A stretch of 64,000 nucleotides of DNA from Escherichia coli. GTDB taxonomy: Bacteria; Pseudomonadota; Gammaproteobacteria; Enterobacterales; Enterobacteriaceae. Positions 3,142 to 20,732 of this stretch are shown here, piece by piece; the first letter of the stretch is position 1; every line of letters begins with the position of its first letter. The notes beneath the pieces were generated by a model that was not told where the DNA came from, searched no databases, and worked only from the letters and a program-made list of their open reading frames with translations. The translations under genes and the position numbers were made by a program. The stretch is from assembly GCF_051903065.1 (NCBI RefSeq), contig NZ_CP178438.1; one strand, given 5' to 3'.

Positions 3142-4236
3142 ATGTCGCGCGTCAATCATCTATCTTCGCTGTCATTGTTGGCGGTTCTGGTTTTAGCGGG
3201 GTGCAGTAGTCAGGCTCCGCAACCGTTGAAAAAGGGCGAAAAAGAGATAGATGTGGCGAGCGTCGTGCGGCAGAAGATGCCTGCGAACGTGAAAGACCGT
3301 GATGCCTGGGCAAAAGATCTCGCCACCACCTTTGAAAGTCAGGGGCTGGCACCGACGCTGGAAAACGTCTGCTCGGTGCTGGCGGTGGCGCAGCAGGAGT
3401 CAAATTATCAGGCAGATCCGGCCGTTCCGGGCTTAAGCAAAATCGCCTGGCAAGAGATTGACCGTCGTGCTGAACGGATGCACATTCCTCCTTTTCTGGT
3501 TCATACCGCGCTAAAAATCAAATCGCCAAACGGCAAAAGTTATAGCGAACGGTTAGATTCGGTGCGTACAGAAAAGCAATTGAGCGCGATTTTTGACGAT
3601 CTGATCAGCATGGTGCCAATGGGGCAGACGCTGTTTGGTTCGCTTAATCCGGTGCGCACCGGTGGGCCGATGCAGGTCAGCATTGCTTTTGCCGAACAGC
3701 ATACCAAAGGGTATCCGTGGAAAATGGACGGTACAGTCCGTCAGGAAGTCTTTAGTCGCCGCGGCGGGTTGTGGTTTGGTACTTACCATTTACTGAATTA
3801 TCCCGCCAGTTATAGCGCACCGATATACCGTTTTGCTGATTTTAACGCTGGCTGGTACGCCAGCCGTAATGCCGCGTTTCAGAACGCGGTCAGTAAGGCC
3901 AGCGGCGTGAAGCTGGCACTGGACGGTGATTTAATTCGTTACGACAGTAAAGAACCCGGGAAAACCGAACTGGCAACGCGCAAACTGGCGGCAAAACTGG
4001 GGATGAGCGACAGCGAAATTCGTCGTCAGCTAGAGAAAGGTGACAGCTTCTCTTTTGAGGAGACGGCGCTGTACAAGAAAGTTTATCAACTTGCCGAAGC
4101 GAAAACGGGTAAATCACTCCCCCGCGAAATGTTGCCTGGCATTCAACTGGAAAGCCCGAAAATCACCCGCAACCTGACTACGGCCTGGTTTGCGAAGCGC
4201 GTAGACGAACGGCGGGCGCGTTGTATGAAACAGTGA
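3142..4236 (+). CDS. yaiW: Surface-exposed lipoprotein YaiW
   Basis: 364-aa ORF; lipobox LAGC after signal peptide; immediately downstream of sbmA. Confidence 0.85.
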   Translation: MSRVNHLSSLSLLAVLVLAGCSSQAPQPLKKGEKEIDVASVVRQKMPANVKDRDAWAKDLATTFESQGLAPTLENVCSVLAVAQQESNYQADPAVPGLSKIAWQEIDRRAERMHIPPFLVHTALKIKSPNGKSYSERLDSVRTEKQLSAIFDDLISMVPMGQTLFGSLNPVRTGGPMQVSIAFAEQHTKGYPWKMDGTVRQEVFSRRGGLWFGTYHLLNYPASYSAPIYRFADFNAGWYASRNAAFQNAVSKASGVKLALDGDLIRYDSKEPGKTELATRKLAAKLGMSDSEIRRQLEKGDSFSFEETALYKKVYQLAEAKTGKSLPREMLPGIQLESPKITRNLTTAWFAKRVDERRARCMKQ

Positions 4237-11674: not shown

Positions 11675-12199
11675 ATGACACAACCTCTTTTTCTGATTGG
11701 GCCTCGGGGCTGTGGTAAAACAACGGTCGGAATGGCCCTTGCCGATTCGCTTAACCGTCGGTTTGTCGATACCGATCAGTGGTTGCAATCACAGCTCAAT
11801 ATGACGGTCGCGGAGATCGTCGAAAGGGAAGAGTGGGCGGGATTTCGCGCCAGAGAAACGGCGGCGCTGGAAGCGGTAACTGCGCCATCCACCGTTATCG
11901 CTACAGGCGGCGGCATTATTCTGACGGAATTTAATCGTCACTTCATGCAAAATAACGGGATCGTGGTTTATTTGTGTGCGCCAGTATCAGTCCTGGTTAA
12001 CCGACTGCAAGCTGCACCGGAAGAAGATTTACGGCCAACCTTAACGGGAAAACCGCTGAGCGAAGAAGTTCAGGAAGTGCTGGAAGAACGCGATGCGCTA
12101 TATCGTGAAGTTGCGCATATTATCATCGACGCAACAAACGAACCCAGCCAGGTGATTTCTGAAATTCGCAGCGCCCTGGCACAGACGATCAATTGTTGA
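11675..12199 (+). CDS. aroL: Shikimate kinase II
   Basis: 174 aa; P-loop GPRGCGKTT. Confidence 0.95.
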
Positions 12200-12239
12200 T
12201 TTTCGAGCGCCTATACTTAACGTTCATCCCGTGAAATAA

Positions 12240-12440
<201 letters not shown>

Positions 12441-12697
12441 CCGCATCAGACTGCTCGGAAGGGATTCTGAGTGCCACTACAAGGGATCTGCGTCACATTT
12501 TTCATAATTCATGTTTTTCAAATAATTAGAATATTAAACAATAACAATCCATTACTGGAATCATTTGGAATCTTTACATTATGCCGTGCACGTCTGCTGC
12601 TACGCTTTTTGTCATTTGTAGCACAAGTAAGTGTCAGCAGTGGTGCTTAACACTTGCCCGGTAATTAACGACGAAATAAAAGTAAGGTGGAAGAACA

Positions 12698-13375
12698 ATG
12701 AGTGCGTCGTTGGCGATTCTAACCATCGGCATTGTACCTATGCAGGAAGTTTTGCCGCTCCTGACAGAATACATTGACGAAGATAATATTTCCCATCATA
12801 GCCTGCTGGGGAAGTTAAGCCGCGAAGAAGTGATGGCGGAGTACGCGCCAGAAGCAGGCGAAGACACAATTCTCACATTATTAAATGACAACCATTTGGT
12901 CCATGTTTCGCGTCGCAAAGTAGAGCGTGACCTGCAAGGTGTGGTTGAAGTGCTCGATAATCAGGGCTACGACGTCATTATATTAATGAGTACGGCAAAC
13001 ATTAGTAGTATGACTGCGCGTAATACGATCTTTCTTGAGCCGTCGCGGATATTGCCACCGCTGGTTTCCTCTATTGTTGAAGATCATCAGGTGGGGGTTA
13101 TCGTACCGGTTGAGGAGTTGCTGACCGTTCAGGCGCAAAAATGGCAAATTTTGCAGAAACCGCCGGTATTTTCATTGGGTAACCCCATTCATGATTCAGA
13201 ACAAAAAATCATTGATGCCGGGAAAGAATTACTGGCGAAAGGCGCAGATGTCATCATGCTGGATTGTTTGGGATTTAACCAGCGTCATCGCGATTTACTG
13301 CAAAAACAGCTCGATGTTCCTGTCTTGCTCTCTAACGTATTGATTGCACGGCTGGCTGCGGAATTACTGGTGTAA
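12698..13375 (+). CDS. aroM: AroM family protein
   Basis: 225-aa ORF; synteny. Confidence 0.85.
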
Positions 13376-13446
13376 TTTTGCGTGACAGCCAGCGCATCTG
13401 GCCCCTATAGTGAAGTAGATGTTCAACTACCAGACAGGGCCAGTTT

Positions 13447-13731
13447 ATGCTTCAAAGTAATGAGTACTTTTCCGGCAAAGTGAAATCGATCGGCTTTTCC
13501 AGCAGCAGCACTGGTCGCGCCAGCGTGGGTGTTATGGTTGAAGGCGAATACACCTTCAGCACCGCTGAGCCGGAAGAGATGACGGTAATCAGTGGCGCGC
13601 TGAATGTGTTACTGCCTGACGCGACCGACTGGCAAGTGTATGAAGCCGGTTCGGTGTTTAATGTTCCCGGTCACAGTGAGTTTCATCTGCAAGTTGCCGA
13701 ACCCACCTCTTATCTGTGCCGCTATCTGTAA
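13447..13731 (+). CDS. ppnP: Pyrimidine/purine nucleoside phosphorylase PpnP (YaiE)
   Basis: 94-aa cupin-like ORF; synteny. Confidence 0.85.
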
Positions 13732-15001
13732 TTCCTCGCCTTCCCCTTGAACGGGAGGGCATTTTTCTGAAATATCCTCTCTTTAACCCATAATAATATT
13801 TCCTTTGCTGCGATTTTTTCAATTTCCGATATATTCATAATTCATCAAGGTTGATATCAATATCATTGAAGATTATGAATAGAATTAATATATTGGTCAT
13901 CTGTATGGTCGTGTTTTTTATGACTGGCAATGCATGTGCCACAGAGTGGATCAGTAGCGAGGACCTTATCACCTCTGACTTTCATCTTATGACGGCAGAT
14001 GAGCGCAACGTGGTTAAAGCGGCAACCGACGATAGTATGGAAGCTGCTTATATGCTAAAAGATAATATCCGCTGGTATTATCATAATGGTAACCTATCAT
14101 TACCCGCTAACTTCAGCAATCAAAATAAACTGGTGGTGAACGGTAATTTAACGATTTCCGGCGATTATGATGATTATCTGTCAGGTAATGGTCATCTGAT
14201 TGTATTAGGTAATGTTATTGTCGATAACTTTATTAATCATGATTTCGCGTATGTCAAAGGACAGATGACAGCGAAAGGTTTAGTTTATGCTGATTACAAT
14301 GATCACAACTTTGAAGTGATGAAGGGAATTAGCGCGCGAGGCATTATTGTTTCCGATAAAGCAACGCAATTTGAGGTCATCAAAGCTGAGTTTTATATCA
14401 ATGAAGATGAAAGCGGTGAAGGATATAACTGGGATGAGAATATTCAAAAAGCCTATTCACTGGTGACTGCCGATCTTTATGATCACACTGAAATCGAAAC
14501 CGATAACATTTCCAATGCGTATCCTGACTATGATAGCGTCGCAGACAACATCGTTCAGGGTTTACCTCTTTTTTGCGATAAAGCCGCTCCTGAAATTAAT
14601 GAGAAATTAAAATGGATTGAAACGGGGAAACTCGATAATTTCCCAGCGAATAAAATAAAGCATCAAGATCCACTGGTGGCACGTTTTCTGACTCATACAG
14701 AGAGTTTATCACCCGCCGTTATGCTGCAACTGTTACAGCACCCCGATGACCAGACGCGTGAATCGATGGCGCAGTCCTGGCCCGCTCAACAGATGCATTT
14801 GCTTACCGATGAATTAATTAAAGATGAGGCTGTTGCCAGAGGGCTGGTTAAAAACAGTAATATTTCCGCCGATGTGAATAAAAAATTAATGTCTGTACCC
14901 GTCGAGAGCGTACAGCTGGAGCAGGCCAGACAGGATAATCTTTCTCCAGATATTGTTGCGTCGTTAAGTCATAGCCCCTTTCTCAGTGTACGCAAGACAT
15001 T

Positions 15002-15010
15002 ACTCAGCCA
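15002..15010. repeat. IS1 target-site duplication, left copy (actcagcca)
   Basis: Identical 9-mer directly flanks both IS1 ends. Confidence 0.9.
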
Positions 15011-15065
15011 GGTGATGCTGCCAACTTACTGATTTAGTGTATGATGGTGTTTTTGAGGTGCTCCA

Positions 15066-15341
15066 GTGGCTTCTGTTTCTATCAGCTGTCCCTCCTGTTC
15101 AGCTACTGACGGGGTGGTGCGTAACGGCAAAAGCACCGCCGGACATCAGCGCTATCTCTGCTCTCACTGCCGTAAAACATGGCAACTGCAGTTCACTTAC
15201 ACCGCTTCTCAACCCGGTACGCACCAGAAAATCATTGATATGGCCATGAATGGCGTTGGATGCCGGGCAACAGCCCGCATTATGGGCGTTGGCCTCAACA
15301 CGATTTTACGTCACTTAAAAAACTCAGGCCGCAGTCGGTAA
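15066..15341 (+). CDS. insA: IS1 InsA (transposition inhibitor)
   Basis: 91-aa [43 protein letters not shown]... recognised. Confidence 0.9.
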
Positions 15342-15763
15342 CCTCGCGCATACAGCCGGGCAGTGACGTCATCGTCTGCGCGGAAATGGACGAACAGTGG
15401 GGCTATGTCGGGGCTAAATCGCGCCAGCGCTGGCTGTTTTACGCGTATGACAGGCTCCGGAAGACGGTTGTTGCGCACGTATTCGGTGAACGCACTATGG
15501 CGACGCTGGGGCGTCTTATGAGCCTGCTGTCACCCTTTGACGTGGTGATATGGATGACGGATGGCTGGCCGCTGTATGAATCCCGCCTGAAGGGAAAGCT
15601 GCACGTAATCAGCAAGCGATATACGCAGCGAATTGAGCGGCATAACCTGAATCTGAGGCAGCACCTGGCACGGCTGGGACGGAAGTCGCTGTCGTTCTCA
15701 AAATCGGTGGAGCTGCATGACAAAGTCATCGGGCATTATCTGAACATAAAACACTATCAATAA
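15260..15763 (+). CDS. insB: IS1 InsB frame (expressed as the InsAB' transposase by -1 frameshift)
   Basis: 167-aa ORF in the -1 frame relative to insA, overlapping its 3' end. Confidence 0.85.
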
Positions 15764-15778
15764 GTTGGAGTCATTACC

Positions 15779-15787
15779 ACTCAGCCA
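15779..15787. repeat. IS1 target-site duplication, right copy (actcagcca)
   Basis: Identical to 15002-15010. Confidence 0.9.
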
Positions 15788-16927
15788 TTACGATTACGCC
15801 TGGCTGGTTCCGACTGCAGTGGCCGATGAGTTGATAAATAACGAAGACCCGGAGTTACGTGAAAGAATTACCGGAGCAGATTTAACCGCACAACAAGCAG
15901 TGATGTTGAGTAAAGATAAATCACTGAAAGTTCGTGAAGCATTAGCCCGGACGCTTACTGAATTAAAAATTACCCAACTGTCAGCAACCCTGCGTACAGA
16001 GGATATTGAACGTATCGCAGAACAAATGTATCTGGATAATAAAGAAAATAAAAATATCGTAAAAGCGTTATTGATAGCGTTGCCGGAGATGCGTCAACTG
16101 TCTCTGGCAAAAGAAGATGTGCACAATTTGCGCGAAGGTGCGCGTTATCTGACATCGAAGGACGTGATTAGTTATCTATTGACTCAGCATGATGTTCCCA
16201 CCGTCTGGGATGAGCTGGCACGCGATAAATTATTGCCGCTGGAATATAAGAAACAGTTATGGCAACGCACATTAAATTTAATGATGAGCAAACGGCAAGA
16301 AGATCAAGAGCAAGCCTACGAAGTACAGCTGGCGCTGATTGATAATGGTGTTGTTGACGAAGAGATGTTAAATAATGCCATTGATTTACTGGTTGATTTA
16401 CCCGCTGAATACCGCTATCGAATGCGTAACCAATTATTTGATAATAAAGATTTACCTTCCGGAATTATCAACAAACTCGATCAACAGTATCGCTTCAACT
16501 CTGACTGGGCGCTGTCTGTTGACAGTATGAAAAATAGCACCCGTAGGCAAAGTGAAAGAGGATTACACCGCTGGAACCGTGAGGATAGCGATATTTTTGC
16601 GGAACTGGCGACGATAAAAGATAAATCAGATGATGAATGGTGGCGTGCATTGCTGCAAAGTCGCAATGATCATTTGCGCCAAACGGCATTACGCAACGCA
16701 CATACCCCGGCGTCGTTGTTAACGACATTGACTGAGCCTCAGGATCGGTCGCTGGCTATTAATAATCCACAGCTGGCTGCCGATGTGAAAACGGCGTGGT
16801 TAAAAGAGGATCCATCATTACTCTTATTTGTCGAACAACCCGATCTTTCGCTGTTACGTGATTTAGTGAAAACCGGGGCAACGCGGAAAATTCGCAGTGA
16901 AGCGCGTCACCGGCTTGAGGAAAAACA

Positions 16928-17383
16928 ATGACACAACGTCCATGGAGCAAGTTACAGCGGGAGATCTATGACTTACTGACGCCAACGATCAACCTGCAAA
17001 TTCACTGTACCCGTTATCCCATGCGCAGCCAAAATGGTGGAAGCACCGATTTACCGCGTTATTGGATCACGTTGGATAAAAACGTGATCTGGGATTACCC
17101 GAAAGACTTTATTGCAGGTAACGGTGGAGTGCGTAATTTTCACGGTGAAACTTGCTGGTATCCTTACCTGACGGATATTTGTTCAATTTCTGATTTATTG
17201 CGTGAATATATTGATACCCCAAAAGCGGAGCTGTTAACAAAACAATTTACCAGCGATAAATGGGGGTTAGTGAATATTCTGCGTGCTGCTGACAGGCGAA
17301 TAGGGATGAGGCGATTAGATCAGTTACGGCGTAAAACGCATAATATTGCTGCGCTAAAAATTATTGCCCGCCGTAGCGAATAA
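16928..17383 (+). CDS. Hypothetical 151-aa protein, translationally coupled to the IS1-interrupted gene
   Basis: Start overlaps upstream stop (ATGA at 16928-16931); no family recognised. Confidence 0.55.
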
Positions 17384-17408
17384 TTATATCCCTGGTATGG
17401 CTTCGTAC

Positions 17409-17441
17409 GCCGGATAAGACGCGGCAGGCGTCGCATCCGGC
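17409..17441. repeat. REP (repetitive extragenic palindrome) element
   Basis: gccggataagacgcggcaggcgtcgcatccggc, typical E. coli REP. Confidence 0.65.
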
Positions 17442-17460
17442 ATTAAAGGAAAATCAGCAA

Positions 17461-18372
17461 TTAACGTTGTGCTTCGCCACCTAATCCTTCAATCAGGTTT
17501 TGAATTAACGCTGCCAGTTCACCAGTCATCAGGATGAAATCGGCATCAAAACGCTGGGCGAAATCTTCACGGTCGATATCTTCGTTTTGATCGCGCAGCT
17601 CGTCGCAGAACTTCAGACGCTTGAGCGAACCATCGTCGCACATCACAAACTGAATGCGCTGCTGCCAGTCGAGCGCCAGTTTAGTCACCACTTTTCCGGC
17701 TTCAATGTGATTGGTGATCTCTTCGCTGGTCAGATCTTGTTTCTTCGCGCGGATCACTCCGCCATCTTCCAGCAACGATTTCAGCTCGGCTTCATCAAGC
17801 AGCTGGAAGCCCTGTGCCGCACTACCGGAACGTACCCATTCGGTCAGCGTCAGTTCAATCGGGTTTTCCATGCTCAATGGTACAACCGGTAACGACCCCA
17901 GGCTTTTACGCAGCAGTGCCAGCGTATCTTCCGCTTTTTTGGCACTGGCGCAGTCCACCATAATCAAACCGTTAACCGTGTCGATCCACATCATTGTCTG
18001 GCTAAAACGGCTGAAAGCACGCGGCAACAGAGAGTGCAGCACTTCGTCTTTCAGCGAATCTTTTTCGGTTTTCTTCAGCTTACGCGCCTGTTCCGCTTCC
18101 AGTTTGGCGATTTTCGCTTCCAGCGCCTGTTTAATCACCGGAGACGGTAGGATTTTTTCTTCTTTGCGCGCGCAGATAACAATTTGACCATTGGCAACGT
18201 GCGTTAACGCATCGCTGTGCGATCCCATCGGAGGAACCCAGCCCATCTTCGCCATGTCCTGGCTGCCGCATGGGGTAAATGCCATCGAGGCTAGCTGTTT
18301 TTCCATCTCTTCTGCACGCAGCGAAATCTCGCGGCTAAGACGGTAAACCATTAAATTTTTGAACCACAGCAT
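17461..18372 (-). CDS. rdgC: Recombination-associated protein RdgC
   Basis: Trimmed to [12 protein letters not shown] start (303 aa); recognised sequence. Confidence 0.9.
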
Positions 18373-18496
18373 GATAATTTCCACGGCCTTGTCGTTAAAT
18401 TTAGCGGGCATGATAACGAATTGTCGGCGGCCTTGCATTGCCAATCCGGTTGTCCGTCTCTACGCTATTGATATTGAAAAAAATAAGGAGAGTACC

Positions 18497-19405
18497 GTGC
18501 GTATAGGTATCGATTTAGGCGGCACCAAAACTGAAGTGATTGCACTGGGCGATGCAGGGGAGCAGTTGTACCGCCATCGTCTGCCCACGCCGCGTGATGA
18601 TTACCGGCAGACTATTGAAACGATCGCCACGTTGGTTGATATGGCGGAGCAGGCGACGTGGCAGCGCGGAACGGTAGGTATGGGCATTCCTGGCTCAATT
18701 TCGCCTTACACCGGTGTGGTGAAGAATGCCAATTCAACCTGGCTCAACGGTCAGCCATTCGATAAAGACTTAAGCGCGAGGTTGCAGCGGGAAGTGCGGC
18801 TGGCAAATGACGCCAACTGTCTGGCGGTTTCAGAAGCAGTAGATGGCGCGGCAGCGGGAGCGCAGACGGTATTTGCCGTGATTATCGGCACGGGATGCGG
18901 CGCGGGCGTGGCATTCAATGGGCGGGCGCATATCGGCGGCAATGGCACGGCAGGTGAGTGGGGACACAATCCGCTACCGTGGATGGACGAAGACGAACTG
19001 CGTTATCGCGAGGAAGTCCCTTGTTATTGCGGTAAACAAGGTTGTATTGAAACCTTTATTTCGGGCACGGGATTCGCGACGGATTATCGTCGTTTGAGCG
19101 GACATGCGCTGAAAGGCAGTGAAATTATCCGCCTGGTTGAAGAAAACGATCCGGTAGCGGAACTGGCATTGCGTCGCTACGAGCTGCGGCTGGCAAAATC
19201 GCTGGCACATGTCGTGAATATTCTCGATCCGGATGTGATTGTCCTGGGGGGCGGGATGAGCAATGTAGACCGTTTATATCAAACGGTTCCGCAGTTGATT
19301 AAACAATTTGTCTTCGGCGGCGAATGTGAAACGCCGGTGCGTAAGGCGAAGCACGGTGATTCCAGCGGCGTACGCGGCGCTGCGTGGTTATGGCCACAAG
19401 AGTAA
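18497..19405 (+). CDS. mak: Fructokinase/manno(fructo)kinase Mak (ROK family), GTG start
   Basis: [17 protein letters not shown]-terminus; SD aaggag at 18485-18490; the upstream ATG extension overlaps rdgC and is rejected. Confidence 0.9.
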
Positions 19406-19428
19406 AAAACCCAGGCAATTGGCGCATC

Positions 19429-19510
19429 ATGCCTGATGCGACGCTTGCCGCGTCTTATCAGGCCTACAAAATGTGCCAGAACCGCGTAGGGCGGATAAGG
19501 CGTTCACGCC
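19429..19510. repeat. BIME/REP cluster between mak and araJ
   Basis: gcctgatgcgacgcttgccgcgtcttatcaggcctac and ggcggataaggcgttcacgccgcatccggc. Confidence 0.65.
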
Positions 19511-19547
19511 GCATCCGGCAATAAGCAACGCGCTCCGTGACTGCAAT

Positions 19548-20732
19548 CTACCCCAGAGGTTTCGCCAGCACCGGAGTATCCGCCGCTTGCTGGCGCTTAT
19601 AGCGACCATACAGCAGCAATGATGACATCGCAGCAAACGAAAGCAGGGCGGCAGGCAGCGCCACGTAATTATATGCCAGCCCCAGCGTCAGCATCATACC
19701 TCCGCAATATGCGCCGACGGCGCTACCGAGGTTAAACGCTATTTGCCCACCTGCGGCACCTAATAACTCTCCGCCTTTGGCATTTTGCAGTAACAATATT
19801 TGCAGAGGTGCTGAAAGGGCAAATAATCCCGCGCAACAAATAAAAGCAAAAATAAGCGACGTTGTTTTCATGCCGCCGCAGAAAAAGAGCATCAGCAGTG
19901 CCAGTACAATGATAAAGTCAGTCACTGCTGCAATGCGCAGTGGTGAATAACGTCCTGAAATCCTGCCACTTAGCATATTTCCCAGCACCATCCCTAGCCC
20001 AACTAACATCATAATAAAGGTCATCGCCGTTTCCGAAAAACCGGAAATAAACATCATGTATGGCTTTACGTAGCTGAACCAGGCAAATACACCTGCGTTG
20101 CCAAACATGGTGGCGGCGAAAATTAACCACGGGGCCGGGCTGCGCAAAAAGTGAAATTGTTCGCGCAGCTTTCCTTTCGCCTCGTCGCGAATATCCGGCA
20201 CCCAAAAATAGACCGATGCCATCACCGCAATATTAAAAACAGCGATCAATAAAAAGGTGTAACGCCAGCTAAATTCCTGACTTAAATACGTTCCCAGCGG
20301 AATGCCCAGCAAATTGGCGACTGTCATCCCGGAAACCATCCCCGCCACGGCGGCGGTGACTTTTCCGGGTTTGATAATTTTTGATAACACGATCGCTCCG
20401 ACGCCAAAAAATGCGCCATGCGGAAAGCCGGAAACCAGGCGACCAATGGCAAGCATCAGGTAAGACGAAGAGAGCGTGAACATGGCGTTGCCAATGACGC
20501 ACAACGCCACCAGAAACAACAAGATATGTTTGAGTGAGTAGCGGCTGGAAAAGAGTGCGATTATTGGCGCACCGACCACCACCCCCAGCGCATAATACGA
20601 GATCATATGCCCGGCAGCAGGAATCGAAATTCCTACGTTATGCGCCAGCTCCGTGAGCACGCCCATAATGCCAAATTCGGCCATCCCCAAACCAAACGTG
20701 CCCAGAGCCAAAGATAAAATGACTTTTTTCAT
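19548..20732 (-). CDS. araJ: MFS transporter AraJ
   Basis: 12-TM MFS sequence; trimmed to MKKVILSLALG start (394 aa). Confidence 0.85.
   Translation of the reverse strand: MKKVILSLALGTFGLGMAEFGIMGVLTELAHNVGISIPAAGHMISYYALGVVVGAPIIALFSSRYSLKHILLFLVALCVIGNAMFTLSSSYLMLAIGRLVSGFPHGAFFGVGAIVLSKIIKPGKVTAAVAGMVSGMTVANLLGIPLGTYLSQEFSWRYTFLLIAVFNIAVMASVYFWVPDIRDEAKGKLREQFHFLRSPAPWLIFAATMFGNAGVFAWFSYVKPYMMFISGFSETAMTFIMMLVGLGMVLGNMLSGRISGRYSPLRIAAVTDFIIVLALLMLFFCGGMKTTSLIFAFICCAGLFALSAPLQILLLQNAKGGELLGAAGGQIAFNLGSAVGAYCGGMMLTLGLAYNYVALPAALLSFAAMSSLLLYGRYKRQQAADTPVLAKPLG

Follow-up and report, generated by a model that had tools for sequence, protein, structure and literature searches.

An intact SF0329-family gene in an old, decaying islet of Escherichia coli: a widespread bacterial family with a possible stand-alone protective role

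Gene content of the islet between ppnP and rdgC

The window analysed here, a stretch of 64,000 nucleotides of Escherichia coli DNA (contig NZ_CP178438.1 of RefSeq assembly GCF_051903065.1), carries a chromosomal islet of low GC content between ppnP (yaiE) and rdgC. The islet harbours two genes, a large ydbD paralog split by a copy of IS1 and, overlapping the stop codon of this paralog, an intact gene of the SF0329 family. Its features are as follows:

13738..13760, + strand: terminator-like hairpin after ppnP, at the left edge of the low-GC islet (hairpin scan)
13875..15010, + strand: 5′ part of the ydbD-paralog gene (DUF2773 family), codons 1 to ~379 (99.3% identity with its uninterrupted counterpart in strain A16)
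15002..15010, no strand: left 9-bp IS1 target duplication, ACTCAGCCA (sequence)
15011..15778, + strand: IS1, 768 bp, splitting the ydbD-paralog gene (insertion relative to strain A16)
15779..15787, no strand: right 9-bp IS1 target duplication, ACTCAGCCA (sequence)
15779..16931, + strand: 3′ part of the ydbD-paralog gene (alpha-solenoid), stop codon at 16929-16931
16917..16920, + strand: Shine-Dalgarno-like GAGG, 7 nt before the SF0329 ATG and within the 3′ end of the upstream gene (sequence)
16928..17383, + strand: SF0329-family gene, 151 codons plus stop, intact (equal to WP_000194199.1)
17409..17441, - strand: REP palindrome that separates the SF0329 gene from the convergent rdgC and marks where the islet ends on the right (consensus match)

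The small gene encodes a protein of 151 aa and 18 kDa with a pI of 9.6, which is 100% identical to the RefSeq entry WP_000194199.1, named “SF0329 family protein”. The initial annotation had seen in it a protein that matches nothing, a statement that does not hold, as the protein hits both the NCBIfam model NF049912 (94.6 bits for a cut-off of 60, residues 6-148 of 151) and the Pfam family PF25753 (E 3.8e-22, residues 6-140). Judged by these sequence matches, the gene is a member of a family already catalogued and annotated, and as such no discovery; nothing sets the window protein apart from the other members of PF25753/NF049912. The family takes its name from the Shigella flexneri locus tag SF0329, and a full-text literature search found no publications on it. 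Other elements of the initial annotation were borne out, among them the existence of the ORF, its basic C-terminus (11 K+R vs 3 D+E in the last 38 residues) and the lack of a transmembrane segment, the highest 19-residue Kyte-Doolittle mean being 0.34. The overlap of the start codon with the upstream stop was likewise confirmed, the ATG of the SF0329 gene (16928-16930) sharing the tetranucleotide ATGA with the TGA of the large gene (16929-16931), and so was the REP element at 17409-17441, which shows 0 mismatches to the REP consensus, with 0 such matches expected in shuffled sequences. A second REP-like palindrome lies at 19431-19463, downstream of mak, with 2 mismatches to the same pattern, and an Rfam scan of positions 12000-20000 of the window gave no match.

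The SF0329 ORF is a real, intact gene under purifying selection, as indicated by a dN/dS of 0.06 against the E. albertii copy, and likewise against that of Escherichia sp. MOD1-EC7003. Moreover, YkiD, the remnant of the protein in K-12, has been detected by chromosomal tagging (PMC6001520), and since it shares its initiation region with the SF0329 gene, this region works in vivo.

The upstream gene is disrupted, as had been noted at the outset, by a 768-bp IS1 that contains InsA/InsB-sized ORFs. Strain A16 carries an intact upstream ORF of 759 codons, and the in silico excision of the IS1 together with one copy of the 9-bp duplication yields an intact ORF of the same length in the window. Since the IS1 is the sole lesion in the ydbD paralog and its excision restores the 759 codons, the insertion is probably recent. 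The encoded protein is 29% identical to K-12 YdbD over its full length (E 9e-87), and the Pfam family DUF2773 matches solely its last 81 codons (16686-16928). YdbD itself appears in one published listing as sigma-E induced and “induced by methylglyoxal”. The 5′ part of the paralog codes for a signal-peptide-like N-terminus and a beta-rich domain. A structure model of the large protein, built from an alignment of 7 sequences (pLDDT 86.6), shows residues 1-22, which are hydrophobic and signal-peptide-like, as disordered, residues 68-176 as beta-rich, and ~40 helices across residues 240-758. The large protein is predicted from its sequence to be exported to the periplasm, in keeping with the secreted repeat protein of the initial annotation, and profile searches found no recognisable toxin or enzyme domain in it.

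Origin and decay of the islet in Escherichia

The two genes of the islet (13875-17383) have GC contents of 42.8% and 44.1%, compared to 51-52% in ppnP and rdgC, and third-position values (GC3) of 42-43%, compared to 58% in the same flanking genes, which points to a horizontal acquisition that took place long ago. The site holds the two genes, or what is left of them, not just in E. coli but also in E. albertii and in a cryptic Escherichia clade, which rules out a recent insertion of the module in this strain and indicates that the variation within E. coli results from deletions. The “inserted module” of the initial annotation can therefore be kept in the sense of an old acquisition, and has to be abandoned in the sense of a recent insertion.

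Allele counts were taken among 5426 complete E. coli genomes, 446 of which (~8%), many of them O157:H7, have the large gene, while 920 cover the SF0329 ORF at ≥80%. A junction-specific query recovered the junction of the allele from which the large gene has been cleanly deleted (SF-only allele) in 420 genomes, and the junction of K-12 ykiD is present in at least 3490. All five SF-only alleles sampled (L096, L099, L100, L107 and L108) were annotated as frameshifted, with an SF0329 pseudogene of 457 nt. In K-12, the 27-aa YkiD joins, in frame, the first 11 residues of the SF0329 protein to its last 16, and the ykiA pseudogene corresponds to ~124 codons at the 3′ end of the upstream gene; both are remnants of deletions (L002, K-12 MG1655, 3610-4031), whereas the window has a full-length SF0329 gene.

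An order of events can be derived from the alignment of the junctions. The starting state would have been the full two-gene module, from which a first deletion at a GAAGAT microhomology would have removed ~635 codons from the 5′ end of the large gene. The state after this deletion, a ykiA remnant followed by an intact small gene, is found in Escherichia sp. MOD1-EC7003. The second event would have followed either of two routes, an in-frame deletion within the small gene, giving rise to K-12 ykiD, or the deletion of the ykiA remnant, in an allele that also carries a frameshift. E. albertii carries an independent deletion, which spared ~26 codons at the 3′ end of the large gene together with an intact small gene. 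As the SF0329 gene is being lost in E. coli, any benefit derived from it must be conditional.

Distribution, conservation and predicted fold of the SF0329 family

A family search returned 542 homologs of 56-98% identity, and 443 clusters at 50% identity were obtained among 1.84 billion representatives, nearly all the proteins having a single domain and a length of 140-200 aa. The genes are carried by 117 species (in a scan of ~100,000) from more than 10 phyla, with hosts as diverse as Leminorella, Photobacterium, Campylobacter, Leptospira, Bacteroidales, Ruminococcus and other Bacillota, Spirochaetes, Deferribacteres, Acidobacteria and Cloacimonadota. The proteins of different phyla are 50-68% identical, and a cross-phylum alignment of 42 sequences shows a mean column identity of 50% and 19 invariant columns. 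The window protein has all 19, which include S7, K8, Q24, R44, Y45, D56, P58, Y94, D110, W112, D122, R124 and N139. Many polar residues are invariant, among them an H-C pair and a D-R-R motif, and the family is basic throughout, with a median pI of 9.4 (range 8.5-10.2).

No SF0329 homolog was found by tblastn in 50,697 phage records, and the SF0329 protein had no match in PHROGs (best E 0.093) or, at E values up to 0.1, among the families of PADLOC-DB 2.0. The family is also nearly absent from the plasmid collection, where it occurs in one Photobacterium plasmid and in a 1.2-Mb E. coli record labelled as a “plasmid”.

Structure prediction, one of the checks put forward in the initial annotation, resulted in a confident fold with no solved relative. 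The AlphaFold model of the SF0329 protein (pLDDT 88, pTM 0.81) combines an N-terminal helix with a three-stranded antiparallel sheet, a long loop and four helices. Foldseek finds family members alone as structural neighbours, two of them labelled DUF4304, and no solved structure matches. The two Foldseek matches to DUF4304 (PF14137) are 32-34% identical, and one SF0329 member matches this family with an E of 0.035, while the window protein itself gives no match; SF0329 and DUF4304 are probably distant relatives. No papers on DUF4304 were found in a literature search. Lactate racemase, the top match of a PDB sequence search, was rejected as due to chance (E 0.15).

The C-terminal extensions of the longer members of the family are heterogeneous, and those that can be recognised correspond to Tpt1/KptA, to a DnaA-like ATPase and to one weak BrnA-like stretch. 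In the first of these, from a metagenome-assembled genome of an uncultured member of the Bacilli (L091, 2162-3199), the SF0329 domain is fused to a Tpt1/KptA RNA 2′-phosphotransferase (Pfam E 2.7e-43), a fusion that could be either genuine or an artefact of assembly or frameshift.

Genomic contexts of the homologs

Clustering of 1176 neighbouring ORFs revealed no constant partner gene across lineages, recurrence being found solely within single lineages. One instance is that of ~30 Campylobacter metagenome-assembled genomes, where the SF0329 gene forms, with two unannotated genes of 227 and 177 aa, a small islet flanked by housekeeping genes; its association with the 227-aa gene takes two different arrangements (L047, 6650-7856, and L085, 8503-9183).

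In two Bacteroidales loci (L007 and L008), SF0329 homologs with 52-60% identity to the window protein lie in arrays headed by a tyrosine recombinase. More than 15 small genes, all co-directional, come after it, and Imm10, Macro and DUF7716 are found among these. The GC content of the array is 33.8%, compared to 40.4% in the recombinase, and a repeat with the core GCCGRACATTA is found at the ends of the cassettes (L007, 3758-8986, and L008), in a manner that resembles integron attC sites. The same core flanks the SF0329 gene in five more loci (L023, L035, L052, L062 and L064), from Parabacteroides, Muribaculaceae, Bacteroides and Mediterranea. The recombinase of L007 shares 94% identity with one from B. 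fragilis and 65-68% with those of Paraprevotella clara and other Bacteroidales; the rAID-1 criterion is stated as ≥44% identity to the B. fragilis protein BF9343_RS08045. The so-called rAID-1 regions are arrays of orphan immunity genes, some of them experimentally validated, which are recognised by an XerD-like recombinase at the 5′ end, numerous small genes in the same orientation, a low GC content and repetitive intergenic sequences, and whose orphan genes are 32-91% identical to cognate immunity genes (Ross et al. 2019, bioRxiv 10.1101/471110). With their recombinase, more than 15 co-directional genes, low GC and intergenic repeats, together with the Imm10 and Macro neighbours, L007 and L008 match the rAID-1 hallmarks. 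In contrast, the window copy has no recombinase, array or cassette repeat, and SF0329, unlike the rAID-1 genes, has no known cognate toxin and shows a conservation far above the rAID-1 range of 32-91%.

Other homologs adjoin WGR-DUF4240 (Leminorella), DUF2314, SUKH-3 and Macro (Paenibacillus, with the Macro gene nearby in L004), or DKNYY and DUF1266 (L011). Pfam scans of 138 and then 150 neighbouring proteins added SUKH_6/SMI1_KNR4, Imm43, DUF4261, DUF4240 and GNAT, most of the proteins scanned, array neighbours included, having no Pfam match. A number of copies lie beside defence genes, such as an IetA-like ATPase and a TIR protein (L103), PDC-S01 (L101), a McrB-like protein (L076) or, in the Photobacterium plasmid, a helicase-DUF1998 pair. 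A complete Shango-like system (L005, 1-5356), with a TerB protein, SngB (E 3.5e-182) and SngC (E 9.5e-250), was observed 650 nt upstream of a Bradymonadia homolog. Finally, solitary copies end housekeeping operons of gltX, rodA (twice), rpoD, argD, purL and yifB.

None of the ~100 loci inspected has a toxin gene directly upstream of SF0329, and neither there nor in the window does the gene stand directly downstream of an Rhs, CdiA, LXG or T6SS effector gene. The large same-strand upstream neighbours encode PurL, GltX, PBP2/RodA, YifB, DnaG/RpoD, ArgD, an acyl-CoA dehydrogenase, a histidine kinase or defence proteins, and all of them were discarded as candidate cognate toxins, being housekeeping or defence genes. 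SF0329 proteins resemble those of the SUKH/SMI1-KNR4, Imm10 and Imm43 families in being small, cytoplasmic, single-domain, sporadic across phyla and encoded in shared loci, but differ from them in sequence and fold, and in that SF0329 was never found directly downstream of a toxin gene.

Association with the ydbD paralog

The initial annotation took the small protein for a chaperone, immunity or regulatory partner of the large one, and held that this would be refuted if the small ORF were not conserved beside homologs of the large gene in other genomes. A search with the large protein among the ORFs called in 95 loci, within ~100 loci inspected, found both genes together solely in Escherichia and in one metagenome-derived contig (L014), so that the expected co-occurrence largely, though not wholly, fails. 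In more than 95% of the SF0329 contexts (more than 90 loci) there is no DUF2773 gene at all. Matches to the DUF2773/YdbD family, for their part, were found solely in Escherichia and in two metagenome-derived contigs, L014 and L015, whose context is enterobacterial-type or unidentifiable. The ydbD gene of K-12 adjoins ynbA, with no SF0329 gene beside it, and the YdbD-like homolog of L015 (49% identical) stands alone between sprT and a sugar transporter, also with no SF0329 gene. In E. albertii and Escherichia sp. MOD1-EC7003, the SF0329 gene is intact in the absence of a full large gene. Across the genomes inspected, the two families do not show the co-occurrence that a dedicated DUF2773/YdbD partner would have.

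In the contig L014 (323-5914), two ydbD-like genes stand in tandem, one with 49% and the other with 30% identity to that of E. coli, and are followed by an SF0329 homolog (70% identical) and by pieces of a third gene of the ydbD type.

We consider it improbable that the small protein serves the YdbD paralog as a dedicated partner, be it as a chaperone before export, as an immunity factor or in regulating its expression. The idea draws on the overlap of the stop and start codons within one shared operon, on the recurrence of the pairing in the diverged contig L014, and on the finding that all E. coli alleles without the large gene have a disabled SF0329 gene, either through the K-12 deletion (at least 3490 genomes) or by frameshift in the SF-only allele (~420). 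However, this joint loss in E. coli goes back to just two inactivations, which were independent of each other but arose on the same ancestral deletion background, and against the partnership stand the YdbD genes of K-12 and L015 that do without SF0329, the intact SF0329 genes of E. albertii and Escherichia sp. MOD1-EC7003 that do without the large gene, and the lack of DUF2773 in nearly all SF0329 contexts. The large protein, moreover, has no recognisable toxin or enzyme domain, and given its predicted export and the lack of a signal peptide in the small protein, the two would be expected in different compartments.

Discussion

The SF0329 family is independent of the neighbouring large gene, and its homologs are found in immunity-array and defence-island contexts. 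From these contexts we infer a protective function for the SF0329 protein, and tentatively favour its reading as a stand-alone protein of the orphan-immunity or defence type. The protein of the window is basic, cytoplasmic and of 18 kDa, and its gene is co-transcribed and translationally coupled with that of a periplasmic YdbD paralog, which according to this proposal it would not need as a partner. The family as a whole behaves as a cassette of one gene, autonomous and horizontally mobile, from the gene pool of bacterial conflict. Each protein would work alone, protecting its host against an external toxin or attack. Immunity, as suggested in the initial annotation, would then have to be dropped with respect to the large protein, and could survive in the form of orphan immunity, given the homologs in orphan immunity-type arrays. 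As there is no cognate toxin-immunity pair, the immunity reading is one of guilt by association. In addition, immunity proteins that bind toxins are not typically as conserved as this family, with its 19 invariant columns and its 50-68% identity between phyla. The unusually conserved and basic sequence suggests action on a conserved target or lesion, possibly a nucleic acid, rather than on a fast-evolving toxin. Nuclease inhibitors are usually acidic, whereas the SF0329 family is basic.

These traits also feed a possible, though rather unlikely, alternative, in which SF0329 would be a nucleic-acid-binding or modifying protein, for example in RNA repair, serving as a single-gene anti-phage or stress factor and not in interbacterial immunity. 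Such an activity would be in line with the basic pI throughout the family and the arginine-rich C-terminal segment of three helices, and with the invariant polar residues (the H-C pair and the D-R-R motif), which suggest a ligand or active site. It would also fit the fusions of one homolog with the Tpt1/KptA RNA 2′-phosphotransferase and of another with a DnaA-like ATPase, the Macro-domain genes that adjoin SF0329 in L007 and L008 and lie nearby in L004, and the several copies that adjoin known defence systems. On the other hand, PADLOC returned no match, the domains fused to SF0329 are of various kinds and for the most part lack annotation, as would result from chance fusion of neighbouring cassettes, and defence-system neighbours are a minority, present in ~5 of ~50 distinct contexts. 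In any case, a nucleic-acid function overlaps in part with the stand-alone protective role favoured here. A further and unlikely possibility is that the gene is, in E. coli, a functionless hitch-hiker, the decaying remnant of an old acquired islet kept solely by chance in some lineages. The low GC of the islet, its stepwise decay, with the full module in ~8% of the complete genomes and remnants or pseudogenes in the others, and the IS1 already inserted in the upstream gene of this window would all agree with it. However, the dN/dS of 0.06 among the intact copies of three Escherichia species or clades, the very strong conservation across phyla and the confident structure prediction speak against mere chance, and the SF0329 protein is clearly functional where intact, though perhaps dispensable.

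A more specific version of the protective role, which we regard as a long shot, is that SF0329 would be a broad-spectrum factor of new fold acting on the side of the target. The molecule that it would shield or repair would be a conserved one of the cell, probably RNA or some other nucleic acid, and its way of doing so might be to reverse a phosphate lesion or one derived from NAD. Protection of the target would account for a conservation near that of ribosomal proteins, for the absence of a toxin neighbour and for the basic charge, as well as for the Tpt1/KptA fusion and the Macro neighbours.

The gene of the window is an ordinary accessory feature of E. coli, of moderate interest for the discovery of functions. 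The two-gene islet to which it belongs explains the oddities ykiA and ykiD of K-12 as its deletion remnants, and makes of K-12, where solely the 27-aa YkiD is left, a natural null for the SF0329 gene. Since O157:H7 has an intact pair (ECs_0442/ECs_0443), gain- and loss-of-function work would be easy. The family as a whole merits a test at the bench, in view of its conservation across phyla, its confident fold without a solved relative and its recurrence in defence arrays and islands.
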